Counted from the stretch's first letter, positions 1-8,466 are shown. The stretch: 64,000 bases of DNA from Synergistaceae bacterium UBA5560 (GCA_002425685.1 DIMS01000056.1:16511-80510); one strand, 5' to 3'. Notes: generated by a model from the letters alone, not told the origin. A program made the numbers and translations.

Positions 1-152
1 CACCCCGGCGCGTTCGCTCCGCCAGCTCCCGTACCAGCCCCTTGCACTCATTGCCGCATGCGCCGCCGAGTTTGACCACGCCTCTCATGATGCATACCGC
101 CCCTTTCGTTCGTTTTTTTCGTTGCGGCCGCTTCGCACGGCCTGTTGTTCCG

Positions 153-1202
153 CTAGGCCGGAAAGACCGGCATCATGTCCAGACCGAGGGTTTCGTCGAA
201 GCCCGCCATGAGGTTCGCGGACTGCAGCGCGCTTCCTGCGGCGCCCTTCATCAGATTGTCCAGGGCACACCCCGCGAGAAGCCGCCTGCCGTCGGGGTGT
301 CGTTCGAAGCCCACCAGTACCCGGTTGCTCCCGAGGACGTAGCGCGGATCGGGAAGGCGCAGATGGGCAGGTTTCGCGGCGGTGCACTGCACGAAGGGCT
401 CGTTTCTGTAGGTGTTCCGGTAGAGGCTCCAGATCTCCCCCTCGCTCAGCGGAGCGGAAAGGCGCACTGAGGCGAGGAGTTGCACGCCTCGGACGAGTTC
501 CACCGCCGTGAGGGAGAGGGAAAGGCACTCCTCGGGAAGCGCCAGTTCCTGGGCGACCTCCGCCAGATGCCGATGGAAGAAGGGTGTGACCACCCGCAGG
601 CTGCGGCTCCGGATGGGATGATGGCTTCCCGGAGAGGGCTCGGCTCCGCCCTCGGAGGAGCCCACCCGCAGGTCGAGATGGACCTCCTCCACCACTCCTG
701 CCCGGGCCAGGGGAAGCAGGCCGAGAATGGCGGAGGTGGCGTTGCATCCCACTCCGGAGACGCACCGGGCCTGCCGCAGCTCCTCCCGGTGCAGTTCGGG
801 AAGGCCGTAGATTCGTTCCGCGAGCAGCTCCGGCGCCTCGTGGGGGTGACCGTACCACCGGGCGTAGCGCTCGGGGTCGGCGAGGCGGAGGCCCGCCGAG
901 AGATCCACCACGCGGACCCTGCGGGAAAGGCAGTTTTGCACCACCGGAAGGGACGCGCCGTGGGGAAGGGCCAGAAACACCAGATCCGGCGCATCGCCCT
1001 CGGTTTCTTCCGGACCGGAGAAACGGAGATCGTCGTAGGCGCCCCGGAGATGGGAATGGACGCTCGTCACGGGATGTCCCGCACGGCTCCGGGAGATCAC
1101 CCGGCTCACTCGAAATCCGGGATGGCGCGCAAGAAGGCGCAGCAGCTCGCCTCCGGTCATGCCCGCGCCGCCCCAGACGGCCACGGTCAGTACGTTCCGC
1201 AT
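153..1202 (-). CDS. argC: N-acetyl-gamma-glutamyl-phosphate reductase family (ArgC / LysY-type [LysW]-aminoadipate-6-phosphate reductase)
   Basis: 349-aa ORF. Rossmann N-terminus VWGGAGMTGGELLRLL. Catalytic Cys context SGVGCNATS typical of the ArgC/semialdehyde dehydrogenase family. RBS AAAGGAGG 8 nt before the ATG at 1202. Lies downstream of lysW-lysX. Confidence 0.8.
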   Translation of the reverse strand: MRNVLTVAVWGGAGMTGGELLRLLARHPGFRVSRVISRSRAGHPVTSVHSHLRGAYDDLRFSGPEETEGDAPDLVFLALPHGASLPVVQNCLSRRVRVVDLSAGLRLADPERYARWYGHPHEAPELLAERIYGLPELHREELRQARCVSGVGCNATSAILGLLPLARAGVVEEVHLDLRVGSSEGGAEPSPGSHHPIRSRSLRVVTPFFHRHLAEVAQELALPEECLSLSLTAVELVRGVQLLASVRLSAPLSEGEIWSLYRNTYRNEPFVQCTAAKPAHLRLPDPRYVLGSNRVLVGFERHPDGRRLLAGCALDNLMKGAAGSALQSANLMAGFDETLGLDMMPVFPA

Positions 1203-1441: not shown

Positions 1442-2299
1442 CTAGGCCGCCGCAGCCGCAAGACTCCAGGCGTGGCGCACCACTGCGCCGGGAATGTCCA
1501 CGCCGGTGGGCTCGATGGAATTGCGGAATTCCGCGCTGTCGTTCACCTCGTTCACGAGCCATCCCCGGACGGAGGCGAAGAGATCCACCGCGAGGAAATC
1601 GCCTCCGATCGCTTCCTGGACCTGCCGCAGCAGGGTTTCGAGTGTCGCGTCGAGAGGGTGTTTTTCCGCCCGTCCTCCCCGGGCGGTGTTGGTGATCCAG
1701 TGGTCGCTCCGTCGCCGGATGGCGCAAAGCGGTTCTCCACCCACCACGAAGGCCCGCAGGTCGTATCCCTCCGCTTTGTTCACGTATTCCTGAAGGTAGA
1801 ACAGCCCGTGCCGTCCCCCGAGATGTTCCTTGTGCTCCACCAGAGCCTCCGCGGCGTCCCGGTCGTTCACCTTCGCCAGAAGGCGTCCCCAGCTTCCCGA
1901 GACGGGTTTCATCACCAGGGGATAGCCCAGTTCGTCCGCGGCGGCGAGGGCGCCCTCCGCGGAAAAGGCCACGCGGTACGCGGGCTGTGGCACTCCGGCC
2001 CGCTCCAGGGCTAGAGTCGTGGCGAGCTTGTCTCCGCAGAGCCGCATCACCGCCGAGGGGTTCATCACCCGTGCGCCCCGGGTCTCCAGAAAGGCCGCGA
2101 GGGATTCGTTGTGCCCGTGGGCGATGCATCGTGCCAGCACGACATCACCAGAAAGAGTCCGCGAGGGATCTCCCCAGGCGTCGTCCGTCACGTCCTCCAA
2201 AAGAACGGGAATGTCCAGGCGCCGGGCCGCCTCGGCAAGGAGTTTCTCCTCCGCACGGAGGCGGGAATGAAAGATCCGGAGGGATCGTGCCTGCCCCAT
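1442..2299 (-). CDS. lysX: RimK/LysX-type ATP-grasp ligase (alpha-aminoadipate--LysW ligase-like)
   Basis: ORF 1442-2572 trimmed to the ATG at 2299 ([10 protein letters not shown]...), preceded by GGTGAG. The ATG lies 2 nt after the lysW stop. ATP-grasp / RimK-like sequence throughout ([18 protein letters not shown]). Confidence 0.75.
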
Positions 2300-2300
2300 C

Positions 2301-2483
2301 CTACTCACCCCAGTCTTCCTGAACCTGGGGGGCTTCCTCCACCGCCACCGGGTCCAGGGACACCACCTCAAGCTCGGTGCCGCAGTCCCCGCAGAGGAGG
2401 ATTTCCCCCACCAGCACATTTTCGGGAAGCGCCACGTTTCCCTCGCAGACCACACAGACCGCCCGTCGTTCCGATTCCGCCAT
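2301..2483 (-). CDS. lysW: LysW-type amino-group carrier protein (zinc-ribbon protein with acidic EDWGE C-terminus)
   Basis: 60 codons at the C-terminal end of ORF 2301-2762, starting at the ATG at 2483. CVVC...CGDC zinc ribbon. The C-terminal [20 protein letters not shown] matches the LysW tail to which aminoadipate or glutamate is attached. Confidence 0.75.
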
Positions 2484-2584
2484 CGTGCTCTCTCCTTTCT
2501 TTTTGTCGCCGCTCTCCACCGCACATCCTCCGGTTTGGTTCTTCGTCCGTCGCCCGGAAAAGCGGTTTTCACCGGTTCCGTGCA

Positions 2585-2618
2585 TACAAAAAGGCCCGTC
2601 CCCTCTCAGGGACGGGCC
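2585..2618 (-). terminator. T-box expression-platform intrinsic terminator
   Basis: 10-bp GC stem with a 6-nt loop, then UUUUUGU on the minus strand, about 100 nt before the lysW ATG. Its 5' arm overlaps the 3' side of the T-box antiterminator. Confidence 0.7.
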
Positions 2619-2931
2619 TTGAACCCGCGGTACCACCCTGCTTGAGCGCACACATGTGCACTCCCGCTCTCGGCCTGTCACGGCGACCGAACTCCGGGAC
2701 GCGTACTCCGGGAAAACCCCTTTCCGCTCCGGCTCCGCGAGCTTTCGGCATTCTCGAAACATTCCCGAAGGCGCCTCGCAGCCGGTAAGCGCCTCTCTCT
2801 GGCGGGATTTTTCCGTGCCTCTCGCTTCATCGCCATTGCCTTTCCGCTCTGTTCCGATCCCATCCCCACGAAAAAAAGCGCTTTCGTGATCGCGAGTTTC
2901 CTCCGGAGGGACCCTGCGGAAATTCTGTTTG
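2585..2931 (-). promoter_or_regulatory. T-box riboswitch leader (probable tRNA-Lys specifier) upstream of lysW-lysX
   Basis: The minus strand carries AAGCAGGGTGGTACCGCGGGTTC, an exact match to the conserved T-box AGGGUGGNACCGCG. It is followed by the terminator GGCCCGTCCC/GGGACGGGCC plus UUUUUGU. Upstream there is a Stem-I-like GGCGAUGAAGCGAG ... GCCGAAAGCUCGC with an AGAGA motif. The candidate specifier-loop 3' strand is G-AAA-G. The leader is low-GC and noncoding. Confidence 0.7.
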
Positions 2932-2937
2932 CGAAGA

Positions 2938-2965
2938 ATCTTACACGACGATCCAAAAATGTCAA
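2938..2965 (-). promoter_or_regulatory. Sigma70-type promoter for the T-box leader (TTGACA-16-TAAGAT)
   Basis: Read on the minus strand: cctcTTGACAtttttggatcgtcgtgTAAGATtc. It is placed about 35 nt upstream of the Stem I GA motif. Confidence 0.5.
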
Positions 2966-3284
2966 GAGGAACGAAGCAGACTTGGAACGAGGCAGGGAGA
3001 ATGTCATCCCTAAGGAACCTCTGAAAAATGCCACGCCGATCTCGGAAAAACGTGATGCGATTCGAGAGAGGAGCAATTCCTGCCTGATCAGAGCGTCCCT
3101 AAAACGGGACAGGGACAATGTCGTCTGTTCTTCTCTGCGGACGATGAGGAGCCAGTGTTTCCTGAGCCTGACGGAAGCGACCAAAGCGGCGATGAGTTGT
3201 GTGCGTCACGTGGTGTAGAAAGGTTTTCATGGTGTTCGGCGGCGAGTCGGCAATGTTCCGGCACGAAAGAACCCGAGAAAGGGC

Positions 3285-4061
3285 TCAGTCACTTTTCCCC
3301 AGGCTGCGGGAGAGCGTCTCCGCAGCGGTTTTCAACCCCTCCGCAAGTTCGGGAAAACGCTCTTCGGAAAAACGGAAGGTGGGGCCTGAAATGGCCAGGC
3401 AGGCCACCATGGCACCGCTTCCGTCGAAGATGGGCGCCGCCGCGGAGAAGACCCCCTCTTCTCGTTCGGCGACGCTGACGGCATAGCCGTTCGCACGCAC
3501 GTTTTCCAGGCGTGATCGTATGACGGCGGGGTCGGTGATGGTGTTCGCCGTGAGGGGTTTCGCCTCGGCGATGATCTGTTCCGCTTCGTCCGGATCGGAG
3601 AACGCCAAAAAACACCGTCCGGACGCCCCTGCCCACAGGGGAAATCTCGAGCCGAGCTGGGCGGAGCGTTTCAGCGTGTGGAGGCTTTCCACCTGTTCGT
3701 AGCAGACGCGGTATTTCCCCTGCTTGATGTAGAGGTTCACCGTTTCTCCGAAGAGATTCCGGAGCGCCACCATGACGGGAAGCGCATATTTGCGCAGGTT
3801 CAGGGACTCCTTTGCGAGTGCTCCGAGATAGATCAGGCGTGTTCCGAGACGGAAAGTCTTTGTCTCCGGATCGCGGTCGAGGAAGTGCTCCTCCACCAGG
3901 GATCCCAGAATCCGGGACGTTGTGGAAAGAGGGAGGTCCAGCTTTCTGGAGAGCTCCGTCATGCTCCATTCCGGAGCTTTTCTGGAGAAGCACAGCAATA
4001 CCGCGAGAGCTTTCTTGATCGAGGTGTTTCCGGCCTCGATCTCCCGTTCTTCGTGAGGCAT
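3285..4061 (-). CDS. IclR-family transcriptional regulator
   Basis: ORF 3285-4160 trimmed to the ATG at 4061 (MPHEEREIEAG...), preceded by GAGGAGG. N-terminal HTH (WSMTELSRKLDLPLSTTSRIL) and a C-terminal IclR effector domain. Confidence 0.8.
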   Translation of the reverse strand: MPHEEREIEAGNTSIKKALAVLLCFSRKAPEWSMTELSRKLDLPLSTTSRILGSLVEEHFLDRDPETKTFRLGTRLIYLGALAKESLNLRKYALPVMVALRNLFGETVNLYIKQGKYRVCYEQVESLHTLKRSAQLGSRFPLWAGASGRCFLAFSDPDEAEQIIAEAKPLTANTITDPAVIRSRLENVRANGYAVSVAEREEGVFSAAAPIFDGSGAMVACLAISGPTFRFSEERFPELAEGLKTAAETLSRSLGKSD

Positions 4062-4166
4062 GGTTCGTTCCTCCTCGTCAAAGAATCTTTCGCCTCCCCG
4101 GAGTGCGGGAGTCGTGTTTCTCCAGGGCTGTCGAAAGCACTGGATACCTCGAGTGTTCAAAAAATC

Positions 4167-4194
4167 TTGACAAGGAACTTCGAAAAGCTATACT
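4167..4194 (+). promoter_or_regulatory. Sigma70-type promoter TTGACA-16-TATACT for the TAXI-TRAP/lyase operon
   Basis: aaaatcTTGACAaggaacttcgaaaagcTATACTtacg on the plus strand, within a divergent low-GC intergenic region. Confidence 0.5.
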
Positions 4195-4204
4195 TACGCC
4201 AAGC

Positions 4205-4240
4205 TTCCATATTTTAGCATATAACTTCCATATTGTGGAA
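4205..4240. promoter_or_regulatory. Candidate IclR operator: TTCCATATT direct repeat and TTCCATATTGTGGAA palindrome just downstream of the promoter
   Basis: Two copies of TTCCATATT, at 4205 and 4226. The second is part of the inverted repeat TTCCA-N5-TGGAA. It is positioned about +5 to +40 relative to the predicted TSS, a classic repressor position. Confidence 0.4.
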
Positions 4241-4473
4241 TTTTGTTGGACCGGAAACAGCGTTTCGCACGAGAGGGCTTTTTTCGGAAAACGATGCAGA
4301 AGGGAGGGGGAAAGGAAGGACCACGCGGAGGAGTTGAGGCATGGGTGGCCGGCGCCGCAGTCTGACGCGACAAGGGAGACGGAAAGGTTCTTCTGTCCGC
4401 GAGCGCTATGGGGATGTTGTGAGACGTTCTGGGTTGTTTGATGTTTTTCGAGAGGGTATGGGAGGTGTTCTTC

Positions 4474-5418
4474 GTGAAGAAATGTGCGATTCTTCTCAGT
4501 CTGATGATGCTCCTCGTTCTCTCCGCCTGTGCCGGTGCGGAGGAATTCGTCCGGATCGGCACGAGCAGTGTGGGAGGCGGCTTCTATCAGATAGGCAACG
4601 TCATCGCCCAGCTTGGCGCGAAAGTCATGCCCGAGGTGAATTTCACCGCTGTCACGGGAGGCTCCATCAAAAACTGCATCAACCTGGACAAGAAAGAGGT
4701 CGAGCTCGGCATCGTCCAATCGGGAACACTGCTCGAGGCCGTTCAGGGCGTCGGCTCCTTCGAGGGGAAGCCGATCACGTCGCTCCGGTACATTACGGCC
4801 ATCTATCCCATGCCCTGCCATATTTTGGTGAACCTCGACGCGGGAATCACCTCCGTAGCGGACATGAGGGGGAAACGCATCGACTTCGGTCCCGTAGGGG
4901 GCGGTATCGAGGTGAACACGGCCCAGATTCTCGACATTTTCGGCATCACGCCCAAGGACGTGAAGGTGGAGCGTTTCGGCAGATCCGAAGTTGCGGAGGC
5001 CATGAAGACGGGCACGTCGGACGCGCACATCTGGGCCACGAACGCGCCGAATGCGGAGGTGACGGACATGATCACCTCCGGCAAGGTGGGGCTCATCGGC
5101 ATCGAGCCGGAGAAAATCAACGAGATCGTGCAGAAATATCCGTCCTTCGCCGCGGACATGATCCCCGCGAAGAGCTATGCGGGACAGGACGGGGACCTCT
5201 TCACCGTTGCCGCCGTGGGTGCTCTCGTGGCAGGCGCGGACATGAGCGACGAACTGGCCTACAAAATCACGAAAATGCTCTATGAAAACGAGGCGTTCCT
5301 GAAGGAGCGGCACAAGTATTTCGCGAACTTCTCTCTTCAGAAGGCCCTCGACGGGCGATGCATTCCCATCCATCCCGGCGCGGAGAAATTCTACCGCGAG
5401 AAGGGGCTTCTGAAGTAG
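4474..5418 (+). CDS. TRAP transporter solute receptor, TAXI family (lipoprotein)
   Basis: ORF 4438-5418 trimmed to the GTG at 4474 after GGGAGG. Lipoprotein signal MKKCAILLSLMMLLVLSAC (LSAC lipobox). TAXI-type periplasmic binding protein sequence. Confidence 0.8.
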   Translation: MKKCAILLSLMMLLVLSACAGAEEFVRIGTSSVGGGFYQIGNVIAQLGAKVMPEVNFTAVTGGSIKNCINLDKKEVELGIVQSGTLLEAVQGVGSFEGKPITSLRYITAIYPMPCHILVNLDAGITSVADMRGKRIDFGPVGGGIEVNTAQILDIFGITPKDVKVERFGRSEVAEAMKTGTSDAHIWATNAPNAEVTDMITSGKVGLIGIEPEKINEIVQKYPSFAADMIPAKSYAGQDGDLFTVAAVGALVAGADMSDELAYKITKMLYENEAFLKERHKYFANFSLQKALDGRCIPIHPGAEKFYREKGLLK

Positions 5419-5539
5419 CGACGACGGCTTGGGAGGGATACATGTCGCTGCCGACGCGGGGCGGGGCGGAACTCCTTTTCCGTCTCTCCGGTTTCACCCG
5501 CTCCGTCCGTTTCTGTAGGATGTCATGGAGGAATGAACG

Positions 5540-7480
5540 ATGATCGGAACGCCAAACGACGGTTCCGCGCAAACGGTCTCTTCGGAAAAAAAACCGGGGC
5601 GGAGGAAGCGCTCCTTCGCCGGGCCCGTGAAGTACGTGGTCACTGCGCTCACGGTGCTTCTCGCCGTCTTCCATCTCTACACGGCGTTCTTCGGGCTCTT
5701 TCCTTCGATGCAGCAACGGAGCTTCCACATCGCCTTCGTGCTGGCGCTGATTTTTCTCCTGTATCCGGCGACCTCCCGTTCTCCCATGGAGCGGCCTTCG
5801 CCGCTCGACTGGATCTGTGCCGGCCTCGGGGCGTTCTGTTCTCTCTACGTGTTCTTCAACTACGACGCCATCGCCTCCAGGGCGGGCATGTATCTGGACT
5901 ACGAGATCTATCTGGGGATCGTGTTCACGGCGCTCGTCTTCGAGGCGGCCCGAAGAACCCTGGGTAATGTCATGCCCGTCTTCTGCAGTCTGTTCCTGCT
6001 CTTCGCCTATTTCGGAAGGTCTCTGCCGGGACCGCTCCGGCACTTCGGGCTCTCCATCCCCCGCATCGTGGAGGAACTCTACCTCACCACGGACGGACTT
6101 TTCGGCCTCGTGGCGGGCGTGTCGGCCACGTACATCTTTCTCTTCATCCTCTTCGGGGCCTTTCTGGACTCCACGAAGACGTCCACGTTCTTCAACGATT
6201 TCTCCATGGCTCTCACAGGGCACATGAAGGGCGGTCCCGCACGGATCGCCGTACTGGCCAGCGCACTCATGGGGACCATCAGCGGCAGCACCTCCGCGAA
6301 CGTGGCCACCACGGGGGCCTTCACCATTCCCCTGATGAAACGGGTGGGTTTTCAACCTCACTACGCAGGAGCGGTCGAGGCCGCGGCCTCGACGGGAGGA
6401 CAGATCATGCCTCCCGTCATGGGGGCGGCGGCGTTCATCATCGCCGATGCTCTGGGGGTTCCCTACATGAAGGTTCTCCTGGCGGCCATCGTGCCGGCAC
6501 TGCTCTACTTCTGGGGTATCTGGTGTGCGCTGGGTATCGAGGCGGACAAGCTGGGAATCAAGGGCTTGGACCGCTCCCAGCTCCCGCGGCTGCGGGACGT
6601 GCTTTTTCGGGACGGCTACAAGGCGATTCCCCTGGCGGTGATCATCTACTTTCTGCTCCGTGGCTACAATCCTCTTTACGCCGCCTGCTGGGGCATCGGT
6701 GCCGCCGTGGTCTTCAGCTACGTGCGAAAGGAGAGCCGTCTCGATCTGAAGGGGTTGGTGGCGACGCTCGAAGCGGGATCGAAAACGGCCCTTTCCGTTG
6801 CCATCGCCTGTACCATCGTGGGTGTGGTCATCGGCATGATGGGTGCCACGGGGGTGGCCCTCAAGATCGGCGACGTGGTACTCGCCGTGACGCAGGGACG
6901 GTTCTTCCCCACCCTGGTGGTCACCATGATTCTCGCGGTGATCTTCGGCATGGGCATGCCCACAACGGCGAGCTACGTCATGACCAGTGCGGTGGCCGCT
7001 CCGGCTCTCATCCTGCTTGGGTCGGAACCTCTGGACGTGCACATGTTCGTGTTCTATTTCGCCGCCCTTTCCTCCATCACGCCCCCGGTCTGCGTCGGAG
7101 CCTACACCGCGGCGGGCATTGCCGGATCGGATCCCAACAGAACGGCGTTCACGTCGGTGAAGCTGGCACTCACAGGATTTCTGATTCCCTTCATTTTCAT
7201 GTACTCCCCGGAGATTTTGCTCACCAATGTCGCCTCTCCGTGGGTCACCGGGCTCGCGGTGTTGAGCGCCTTCGCGGGGGTGTACGTTCTTGCCGTCGCC
7301 ACCGAGGGATACCTGTTCTCCCCTCTGCTTTTCGTGGAGCGCCTGTGTTGTTTTGCCGCGGCGTTGTTCCTTCTTATGCCCGGATCCGCCACCGACGTGG
7401 TTGGTGTGGCGCTTTTCGGAGGAATTTTCATGTTTCAGAAATGGCGTGCGCGAAAAGGGGGCGAAAGCGGACGAGCCTGA
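5540..7480 (+). CDS. TAXI-type TRAP transporter fused permease (DctQ-DctM fusion)
   Basis: 646-aa polytopic membrane protein typical of TAXI-TRAP fused permeases. RBS GGAGGAA. It immediately follows the TAXI receptor gene. Confidence 0.85.
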   Translation: MIGTPNDGSAQTVSSEKKPGRRKRSFAGPVKYVVTALTVLLAVFHLYTAFFGLFPSMQQRSFHIAFVLALIFLLYPATSRSPMERPSPLDWICAGLGAFCSLYVFFNYDAIASRAGMYLDYEIYLGIVFTALVFEAARRTLGNVMPVFCSLFLLFAYFGRSLPGPLRHFGLSIPRIVEELYLTTDGLFGLVAGVSATYIFLFILFGAFLDSTKTSTFFNDFSMALTGHMKGGPARIAVLASALMGTISGSTSANVATTGAFTIPLMKRVGFQPHYAGAVEAAASTGGQIMPPVMGAAAFIIADALGVPYMKVLLAAIVPALLYFWGIWCALGIEADKLGIKGLDRSQLPRLRDVLFRDGYKAIPLAVIIYFLLRGYNPLYAACWGIGAAVVFSYVRKESRLDLKGLVATLEAGSKTALSVAIACTIVGVVIGMMGATGVALKIGDVVLAVTQGRFFPTLVVTMILAVIFGMGMPTTASYVMTSAVAAPALILLGSEPLDVHMFVFYFAALSSITPPVCVGAYTAAGIAGSDPNRTAFTSVKLALTGFLIPFIFMYSPEILLTNVASPWVTGLAVLSAFAGVYVLAVATEGYLFSPLLFVERLCCFAAALFLLMPGSATDVVGVALFGGIFMFQKWRARKGGESGRA

Positions 7481-7575
7481 CCCGGGCAATTCCGCAGGTC
7501 TTTTTTCGCAAGGTTTTTCGAGGGCCGTGCCACATTCGGGACGTGCTCCATTCTCTCTGACGGAGGAGATTTCTC

Positions 7576-8466
7576 ATGAAGACATCGACGAAACTCAAGG
7601 CGCTCATTCAGCAGCGGAAGGCCCTGGTTGTTCCCGGAGCACACGATGTGATCTCCGCAAAACTCATCGAAAAGACCGGTTTCGAGGCGCTCCAGGTCAG
7701 CGGCTTCGGCCTGGCCGCCACGTATCTCGGCCTGCCCGACATGGCTTTCATCACGTTCAGCGAAGTTCAGGCGTTCACGTTCAACATCATCAAGGCCGTG
7801 AAGATTCCCGTCATGGCCGATGCCGACACCGGATACGGCAACAGCATCAACGCCATGTTCGTCACCGAGGGCTTCATTCGCATCGGCGCGGCGGGCATGA
7901 ACATCGAGGACCAGTATTTTCCCAAGCGGTGCGGCCATATGGAGGGAAAGCAGATCATCCCCACGGAGGAGATGGTTCTCAAAATCAAGGCCTGCGCGAA
8001 AGTGCGGAACGAACTCGATCCGGATTTCGTCATCAACGCCCGTACCGATGCCATCGCCGTCTCCGGCATCGACGAAGCGATCCGTCGGGGAAATGCCTAT
8101 GCGGATGCCGGAGCGGACATGATCTTCGTCGAGGCTCCCAGAACCCGGGAGGATATCGTCAAGGCCGTGAAGGAGATCAAGGCTCCCGTGAGCATCAACC
8201 TCTTCGACAATGTGGAGGGAGGCAAGACTCCCCTTATTCCCGTGGAGGAGCTGCGCGAGATGGGAGTCGCCCGGGTGAGCATTCCCGTGGGCACGACCTT
8301 CGCCGCCTTCCGCGGCGTGGAGCGCTACCTTGAGGCCATCAAGGGCGGAGCGCTCGCGCCGGGACGGACCGATCTCGTCTCCTCCTTCGCGGAGTTCAAG
8401 GAGGTTGCGGGATACACTACCTTCCGGACCCTCGAAAAGGAGTTCCTTCCCAAGTTCGTGGACTGA
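7576..8466 (+). CDS. Isocitrate lyase/PEP mutase family lyase (PrpB-like 2-methylisocitrate lyase / carboxyvinyl-carboxyphosphonate phosphorylmutase-like)
   Basis: 296 aa. The ICL/PEPM signature ...EDQYFPKRCGHMEGK... (K-R-C-G-H). RBS GGAGGAG. Cotranscribed with the TAXI-TRAP genes. Confidence 0.8.
   Translation: MKTSTKLKALIQQRKALVVPGAHDVISAKLIEKTGFEALQVSGFGLAATYLGLPDMAFITFSEVQAFTFNIIKAVKIPVMADADTGYGNSINAMFVTEGFIRIGAAGMNIEDQYFPKRCGHMEGKQIIPTEEMVLKIKACAKVRNELDPDFVINARTDAIAVSGIDEAIRRGNAYADAGADMIFVEAPRTREDIVKAVKEIKAPVSINLFDNVEGGKTPLIPVEELREMGVARVSIPVGTTFAAFRGVERYLEAIKGGALAPGRTDLVSSFAEFKEVAGYTTFRTLEKEFLPKFVD

Follow-up and report, generated by a model that had tools for sequence, protein, structure and literature searches.

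A probable tRNA-Lys T-box riboswitch upstream of the lysW-lysX operon in Synergistota

Introduction

The minus strand of a 64,000-nucleotide stretch of the genome of Synergistaceae bacterium UBA5560 (GCA_002425685.1, DIMS01000056.1:16511-80510; this whole stretch is hereafter called the window, and positions are counted from its first nucleotide) carries a structured leader RNA upstream of lysW, the gene of an amino-group carrier protein. This leader is very probably a T-box riboswitch of class I (transcriptional) with specificity for tRNA-Lys, which would control lysW-lysX-lysY-lysZ(-lysJ-lysK), the carrier-protein half of the alpha-aminoadipate pathway of lysine biosynthesis in Synergistota. 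Judging from sequence comparison and covariation, we assign this reading a probability of about 0.88. Binding of the tRNA, discrimination between its charged and uncharged forms and a response to lysine limitation are properties that we infer for the leader. The mechanism and the RNA family are well known; the specificity and the target are unusual.

Lysine biosynthesis is classically under the control of the L-box riboswitch. In the L-box (RF00168), as presumably in the window element, a cis-acting leader RNA responds to abundant lysine by terminating transcription early and so turning off genes of lysine biosynthesis or transport, but the L-box binds free lysine directly and has an unrelated fold, whereas the window element is proposed to sense the charging of tRNA-Lys and precedes aminoadipate/LysW genes; a gathering-threshold Rfam scan of the window returned no L-box match. 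The lysine gene cluster of Thermus thermophilus, which also encodes the LysW/aminoadipate pathway, was reportedly described by Tsubouchi and coworkers in 2005 as being under leader-peptide transcription attenuation.

Lysine, together with glutamate and glutamine, is among the least common T-box specifiers (TBDB, PMC7778990), and among 891 genomes, Foy et al. (2010, PMC2916919) found lysyl-tRNA synthetase (LysRS) under T-box control in no more than 4 species. In the same study, uncharged tRNA-Lys was shown experimentally to trigger transcription antitermination at the lysK T-box of Bacillus cereus, which was partly inducible by tRNA-Asn as well. Likened to it by description, the window element is also a probable Lys-specific T-box, but the B. 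cereus one controls a class I lysyl-tRNA synthetase and not biosynthesis. Full-text literature searches for a T-box in connection with LysW, LysX or aminoadipate returned nothing relevant; the main comparative T-box surveys lay outside their scope, and an earlier tabulation there or in TBDB or RegPrecise is possible. The "lysW" and "lysX" of PMC5584792 are unrelated transporter genes.

Results and discussion

Architecture of the leader

The T-box proposed for this leader by an earlier sequence-only reading was compared with the Rfam covariance model, which gave a significant full-length match: RF00230 (T-box) aligned over model positions 1-219 to positions 2839-2605 with 55.7 bits and an E-value of 2.1e-11 (E-value mode, 701-nt search), or about 2e-9 after scaling to the whole window. 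The default, gathering-threshold Rfam scan of the whole window reported nothing, because Rfam 15 sets the gathering cutoff of RF00230 at 93 bits, above this score, and the T-box becomes visible in E-value mode only; likewise, none of 13 related loci scanned in the gathering mode reaches the T-box threshold. Given the E-value and the full-length alignment, the sub-threshold match still shows T-box homology.

The structured leader spans about 250 nt (2839-2586) and contains, in the expected order, the elements of the family. Stem I (2834-2731) was delineated by the Rfam alignment and by covariation in an alignment of related leaders described below. It begins with a K-turn/GA motif, GGCGAUGAA at 2834-2826 with GGAGCC at 2736-2731 (read as GCGAUGAA...GGAGC in the Rfam alignment), and its basal helix GCGAG/CUCGC is flanked by GAUGA/GGA. 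The AG bulge AGAGAG occupies 2800-2795 and the distal loop UACCGGCUGCGAG about 2787-2775; the Stem-I-like helix with a K-turn-like start that had been noticed earlier, with GGCGATGAAGCGAG at 2834-2821 and this AG bulge, is therefore present as claimed. The Rfam alignment further places Stem II, with GAAAG and GGAGUA, at 2730 to about 2697, the Stem IIA/B region, with CCGUGA, at 2689-2672 and the Stem III hairpin at 2667-2644.

The T-box sequence itself, AGCAGGGUGGUACCGCGGG, lies at 2642-2624 and is an exact instance of the motif in the Rfam alignment; the exact match asserted from the sequence was indeed found there as AGCAGGGTGGTACCGCGGG. The conserved box AGGGUGGUACCGCG is matched exactly within a bulged antiterminator, and the 14-nt consensus AGGGUGGNACCGCG is matched exactly at 2639-2626, on the 5' side of that antiterminator (2639-2608). 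The 7-nt bulge UGGUACC presents UGGU at 2635-2632, which is complementary to the ACCA 3' end of tRNA and is kept in all copies examined. Downstream, the hairpin AAGGCCCGTCCCT-GAGA-GGGGACGGGCCTT (2620-2591), followed by TTTTTGT up to 2586, constitutes an intrinsic terminator with the U-tract UUUUUGU at 2592-2586. A GC hairpin with this U-tract had been predicted at this place; its stem has 13 base pairs, 9 of them G-C, and not 10 as had been stated.

The segment CCCGUCCCU is common to both helices, being the 3' strand of the antiterminator and the 5' arm of the terminator. In predicted folds, the terminator has -26.9 kcal/mol, the named antiterminator -9.7 kcal/mol and the best fold of the antiterminator segment -11.7 kcal/mol, and the T-box segment forms the canonical bulged antiterminator with the terminator 5' arm, as the proposal demanded. 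These modelled energies correspond to the layout usual for T-boxes, where the antiterminator would prevail only with the help of the tRNA acceptor end.

Comparative evidence

To place the leader in context, 160 LysX loci were collected from genomes and metagenomes (numbered L001 onwards). The closest LysX relatives, 68-70% identical to that of the window, come from metagenome-assembled genomes (MAGs) of Synergistales and Synergistaceae, which places the organism in Synergistota. A covariance model built from seven Synergistota leaders (R1) found homologues directly upstream of lysW in L001, L003/L004/L082/L083, L008, L009/L088/L126, L011 and L090/L093/L094; altogether, ten further distinct leaders precede lysW in other Synergistota, with LysX identities of 55-68%.

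These leaders were combined into an alignment, A4, of 13 sequences with 11 distinct rows, all from Synergistota. As A4 was fitted to its own model, which favours the modelled structure, its measures were set against controls: 94.6% of the cells are paired and 27 of the 44 pairs show compensatory changes, compared with 35-52% pairing when the 3' partners are slid by 1-3 columns, and none of 500 shuffles reaches any of the observed measures. Compensatory changes affect three of the five pairs of the Stem I basal helix and five of the eight pairs of the distal helix, and in Stem II and the IIA/B helix all 15 pairs vary, 14 of them with a compensatory change. In the antiterminator, pairing across the 11 distinct sequences amounts to 100% in the distal helix and 89% in the basal helix. 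An independent run of MAFFT and RNAalifold recovered identical helices for Stem I, Stem II and IIA/B. Among the single-stranded elements, the AG bulge is conserved as CAGAGAG (CAGCGAG in L090 and L093) and the distal loop keeps a CGG-UG core, which reads CCGGCUG in most copies.

The weaker matches of R1 are canonical T-boxes with the AGUA and GAA-N signatures of the S-turn (GAG-N in L062). Of this Chloroflexota type, T-boxes stand before lysW in a Thermomicrobiales MAG (L030), in Thermogemmatispora (L062) and in two metagenome contigs (L113 and L140), and in a further locus (L122) a canonical T-box heads the genes of homocitrate synthase, the large and small subunits of homoaconitase, lysX and lysY. 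On this sequence evidence, association of a Lys T-box with LysW/aminoadipate genes is recurrent, in at least two phyla.

The specifier and the identity of the tRNA

The codon that the leader would present is AAA (Lys) at 2745-2743 followed by the purine G at 2742, immediately before the 3' strand of the Stem I basal helix, within TGCC-G-AAA-G-CTCGC (2750-2737, minus strand). In the corresponding columns of A4 (100-103), all 11 distinct Synergistota sequences have AAA or AAG followed by G or A, and thus the only variation across the Synergistota leaders is synonymous, at the third position. The five Chloroflexota-type T-boxes (L030, L062, L113, L122 and L140) carry AAG followed by A or G, placed after the GAA of the S-turn (GAG in L062). 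The assignment of a Lys specifier is hence upheld in both sets of leaders. Bacterial tRNA-Lys has the discriminator A73, which fits UGGU, and the presence of UGGU in all copies implies a tRNA with discriminator A. From these sequence features, the leader most likely reads uncharged tRNA-Lys.

The specifier region departs from the textbook form: a 4-bp helix (GGCA/UGCC in the window) parts a purine-rich internal loop (AGAA in the window) from a loop of 2x6 nt that contains N-N-AAR-R. This inserted helix, together with the lack of a canonical S-turn pattern next to the codon, probably explains the low Rfam score.

Proposed mechanism and its weak points

Under the mechanism that we propose, transcription would start from the TTGACA/TAAGAT promoter described below, and tRNA-Lys would dock on Stem I through the AAA specifier (2745-2743) and the platform formed by the AG bulge and the distal loop. 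An uncharged tRNA would offer its free ACCA end to the UGGU of the T-box bulge and, by pairing there, stabilise the weak antiterminator (about -10 kcal/mol), allowing the polymerase to read into lysW; with a charged tRNA, the stronger terminator (-27 kcal/mol) would form and transcription would stop at the U-tract (2592-2586).

Compared with class I T-boxes (RF00230; for example, Bacillus subtilis tyrS and glyQS), the window element shares the K-turn, the specifier followed by a purine, the AG bulge, the distal loop, Stem II with GAAAG/GGAGUA, IIA/B and Stem III, as well as the AGGGUGGNACCGCG box with its 7-nt bulge and the competition between antiterminator and intrinsic terminator. It differs in scoring 55.7 bits (<93), in having a 4-bp helix and no canonical AGUA/GAA S-turn beside the codon, in a 5' extension of about 95 nt and in its host phylum, which is Synergistota and not Firmicutes.

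Several observations weigh against a tRNA-Lys T-box in this position. The RF00230 score of 55.7 is under the gathering threshold of 93; the canonical AGUA/GAA S-turn is absent beside the codon, and the geometry of codon presentation is accordingly not that of the textbook; and the Rfam register puts GCC, not AAA, in the consensus codon position. A search of the window and 40 related loci found no tRNA gene, and hence no tRNA-Lys anticodon or discriminator with which the leader could be compared. Finally, the T-box is absent from roughly half of the related Synergistota lysW operons with a LysX-type ligase, and is therefore not essential to the pathway.

Among the operons devoid of a T-box, L002 (5250-5870), L005, L006 and L010 show a TTGACA promoter followed by some 250 nt of AT-rich leader; its inverted repeats, which resemble ATGAAC...GTTCAT, may be a protein operator that replaces the T-box. 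Thermogemmatispora (L062, 944-1572) has a tandem pair of T-box-like elements upstream of lysW-lysX, the second with an AAG specifier and the first apparently missing most of Stem I. The lysW gene of Anaerolineae (L131, 4622-4793; L038, 553-724) follows a structured leader which is conserved but is neither a T-box nor a match to any Rfam family; a strong terminator, GGGGCCGGCCCTCCGG...CCGGAGGGCCGGCC with a T-run, lies at its end.

Operon genes and pathway

The genes downstream of the leader are those of the LysW system. The first, lysW (2301-2483, minus strand), encodes a carrier protein of 60 aa that scores 59.1 bits with TIGR01206 (cutoff 53.2), matches PF21344 and ends in QVQEDWGE, with the acidic EDWGE tail; its ribosome-binding site (RBS), GGAGAGAG, is at 2495-2488. 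The second, lysX (1442-2299, minus strand), encodes a LysW--aminoadipate ligase of 285 aa (TIGR02144, 279.9 bits; cutoff 275.6), and the third, lysY (153-1202, minus strand), a LysW-aminoadipyl-phosphate reductase of the ArgC family (TIGR01850, 321 bits). The identities of lysW and lysX, which had been assigned by inspection, and of lysY were thereby borne out by NCBIfam and Pfam models. The operon leaves the window within lysZ, of which the initial 29 codons are present at the left edge (1-88, minus strand; start MRGVVKLGGACGN...), and their translation matches the N-termini of LysZ in L001 and L011, which themselves match the [LysW]-aminoadipate kinase model. In these two relatives the operon is lysW-X-Y-Z-J-K, with complete lysZ, lysJ and lysK. 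Genes of homocitrate synthase, homoaconitase and homoisocitrate dehydrogenase do not adjoin the operon in the window, the remaining genes of which were not surveyed.

The substrate of LysX-family ligases can be read from a five-residue signature, which is F-I-T-NS in the aminoadipate-specific LysX, I-Y-V-GF in the glutamate-specific ArgX and Y-I-T-NA in bifunctional enzymes (2025 study, PMC12998189); in Thermus numbering, the residues are F182, I192, T203, N258 and S259 of TtLysX (PMC12998189). In an alignment to Thermus LysX (A5) and by tblastn, the window LysX and all 18 T-box-linked LysX genes have F-I-T-NS. LysX paralogs that have no T-box show I-M-T-GS (L090, L093 and L094), V-M-T-GS (L016 and L025) or T-I-T-SS (L012-L014 and others), and the T-box was never found linked to these ArgX-like paralogs. 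The RNA specifier and the LysX signature agree, which argues that the operon is a lysine operon. The earlier suggestion that these genes make lysine via aminoadipate is thus supported by the F-I-T-NS signature, by lysWXYZJK in the relatives and by the Lys T-box that heads the homocitrate synthase, homoaconitase and lysX genes in L122.

In three of the loci with a T-box (L090, 4908-5870; L093, 3-326; L094, 545-1375), a gene of a second LysX-family ligase with the ArgX-like I-M-T-GS signature lies immediately upstream of the T-box-lysW-lysX operon, and in L090 it adjoins a gene of 2,4-diaminopentanoate dehydrogenase, an enzyme of ornithine metabolism. The position of this paralog beside the T-box operon suggests that LysW and LysYZJK are shared between lysine and ornithine/arginine synthesis in these organisms.

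Alternative explanations

The alternative that survives best retains the tRNA-Lys T-box and differs in the pathway: the LysW system would be bifunctional or devoted to arginine/ornithine, as in Thermococcus and Sulfolobus, and the lysine signal would control a part of its output. Homologues of LysY, LysZ, LysJ and LysK are promiscuous or bifunctional in several organisms (PMC12998189), the best NCBIfam models for LysY and LysJ are argC and argD, a Lys/Arg-rich attenuator-like element lies ahead of lysY, and in L090 the ArgX-like paralog adjoins the T-box operon. The window LysX, however, has neither the ArgX nor the bifunctional signature, a search for an ArgX paralog in the window found none, and L122 ties the Lys T-box to homocitrate synthase and homoaconitase; we consider this explanation unlikely.

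Still less probable, in our estimate, is a T-box that reads another tRNA, either tRNA-Ala through a GCY triplet 5 nt upstream of AAA or tRNA-Glu through a GAA that overlaps AAA. The Rfam alignment does assign UGCCG to the columns of the consensus codon, with AAAG counted as inserted, GCC or GCU is kept in all Synergistota copies, and the UGGU bulge is compatible with the A73 discriminator of tRNA-Ala too. Yet the first two nucleotides of GCY are engaged in a helix (helix 3) with an invariant GC on its 5' side, and the flanking pairs of this helix covary; the nucleotide that follows GCY is G, C or U, with no conserved purine, and GCY is five nucleotides from the basal helix, whereas AAR plus purine abuts that helix, which is the defining position, and is the same triplet as in the canonical Chloroflexota-type copies. 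GAA is unique to the window, the other copies having CAA or UAA, and an Ala or Glu signal would be senseless for a LysX-type operon. GCC and GAA were therefore rejected as specifiers on conservation and pairing.

Least probable of all is a decayed, non-regulatory T-box relic, in which the hairpin would be a constitutive terminator or pause site and the real control would lie elsewhere, for example in the IclR-family gene encoded directly upstream (4061-3285) or in an internal attenuator: the sub-threshold Rfam score, the atypical specifier loop and the related operons that function without a T-box are in keeping with it, but none of the invariant T-box positions is damaged, compensatory changes in ten other distinct leaders preserve all the helices and the specifier is retained there too, a pattern that indicates purifying selection on function, and a constitutive terminator of -27 kcal/mol would kill expression of the operon in the absence of antitermination.

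With the leader taken as a tRNA-Lys T-box, two phyla, Synergistota and lineages of the Chloroflexota type, would place the LysW/aminoadipate lysine pathway under this control instead of the L-box. The specifier would then serve as an independent functional label, which marks LysW operons as lysine and not arginine operons, and the LysX signature concurs. All of these T-boxes score below the Rfam 15 gathering score and therefore go unannotated in pipelines that rely on curated cut-offs. The specifier loop, a variant with no canonical S-turn pattern beside the codon, could also inform how Stem I presents the codon.

An attenuator-like element in the lysX-lysY spacer

A second element with the appearance of an attenuator occupies the spacer of about 240 nt between lysX and lysY (1441-1203, minus strand). 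It comprises a Lys/Arg-rich micro-ORF, with a start at GTG 1420 or ATG 1417, that reads ...TKTRRNKRCKRASKRSA..., an antiterminator strand CGGGUCG at 1337-1331 and a terminator GACCCGCG...CGCGGGUC at 1266-1240 followed by UUUUCUUUUU at 1239-1230, all on the minus strand; an Rfam search of the spacer returned no match. The spacer measures 190-256 nt wherever LysX shares at least 57.6% identity with that of the window (22 loci), with or without a T-box, and 60 nt or less in most of the others. The attenuator-like element is found in these 22 loci of the LysX clade of the window and is absent elsewhere (relatives include L001, 6850-7048; L003, 4297-4545; L009, 6847-7072; L010, 6817-7037; L090, 7215-7408).

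Each of the long spacers has a GC hairpin with a T-run at its end, just before the lysY ribosome-binding site, and upstream of it a segment whose sequence is complementary to the hairpin's 5' arm. With terminators defined by hand, this complementarity has a mean z of -2.3 relative to dinucleotide shuffles and is negative in all 17 sequences tested. The stretch that precedes the complementary segment is always an open, translated frame rich in Lys-Arg pairs. In L009, L011, L126, L090 and L093 it forms a C-terminal tail of LysX, and in the window and in L001, L002, L003/L004, L006, L007, L008, L010, L085, L087 and L089 a micro-ORF that is coupled to the stop codon of lysX. Between L090 and L093 there are three synonymous AAG/AAA changes at Lys codons and no Lys or Arg residue is lost; L003 is distinguished from L004 in this stretch by an indel of 9 nt that preserves the frame.

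From its sequence, the element looks like ribosome-mediated attenuation inside the operon, in which the position of the ribosome on the Lys/Arg stretch, be it a micro-ORF or a LysX tail, would decide between the antiterminator and the terminator. Counting against attenuation, the micro-ORF frame of the window has no stop before the terminator and the classical model is not fitted; alternatively, the AAGCG repeats of the spacer could be an RNA motif. With its translated Lys/Arg-rich stretch and its alternative antiterminator and terminator helices, the element has its nearest analogue in the leader-peptide attenuation reported for Thermus, which also regulates a LysW/aminoadipate lysine cluster by transcription attenuation; in contrast to Thermus, the 5' control of the window operon is a T-box, and the candidate peptide attenuator is internal to the operon, fused to LysX in some relatives and mixed in its Lys and Arg codons.

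Tentatively, and as a possibility that we hold to be well short of even odds, the operon might have two RNA controls in series, a tRNA-Lys T-box that gates lysW-lysX, the lysine-committing step, and a new intercistronic attenuator (1441-1203) that gates lysY-Z-J-K. If this were true, enzymes that serve both lysine and arginine/ornithine synthesis could respond to both amino acids.

Promoter, leader layout and neighbouring genes

Upstream of the leader, a sigma-70-type promoter with 10 of 12 consensus matches consists of TTGACA at 2965-2960, a 16-nt spacer and TAAGAT at 2943-2938 (minus strand). It is the sole such site in the 1 kb from 2300 to 3300, where shuffled sequences give an expectation of 0.1, and L001, L003 and L008 have TTGACA-17-nnTAnnAT at the equivalent position. 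The promoter was correctly recognised in the sequence-only reading, and its distance was not: the -10 box ends about 100 nt before Stem I and not about 35 nt. The description of the leader as low in GC does not hold either, as its GC fraction is 0.60, and that of the T-box itself 0.64, against 0.63 for the window. Open reading frames (ORFs) overlapping the leader, among them one of 153 aa at 2301-2762, were rejected because they merely extend mechanically across structured RNA. Between the structured leader and lysW there are 100 nt, which include the RBS.

The 5' extension from the promoter to Stem I is about 95 nt long (2937-2840, minus strand); in the relatives this interval is 50-75 nt and its sequence is not conserved. 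In the window it holds small hairpins, CCTCCGGAGG and CACGAAA...TTTCGTG.

Beyond the operon, the genes in the interval 3285-8466 of the window have no evident link to lysine. They include the gene of the IclR-family regulator (4061-3285, by NCBIfam and Pfam), on the same strand as the operon, and three ORFs of the opposite strand, which were read by eye as a TAXI-type solute receptor (4438-5418), a fused TRAP permease (5540-7480) and an enzyme of the isocitrate-lyase/PEP-mutase family (7576-8466).

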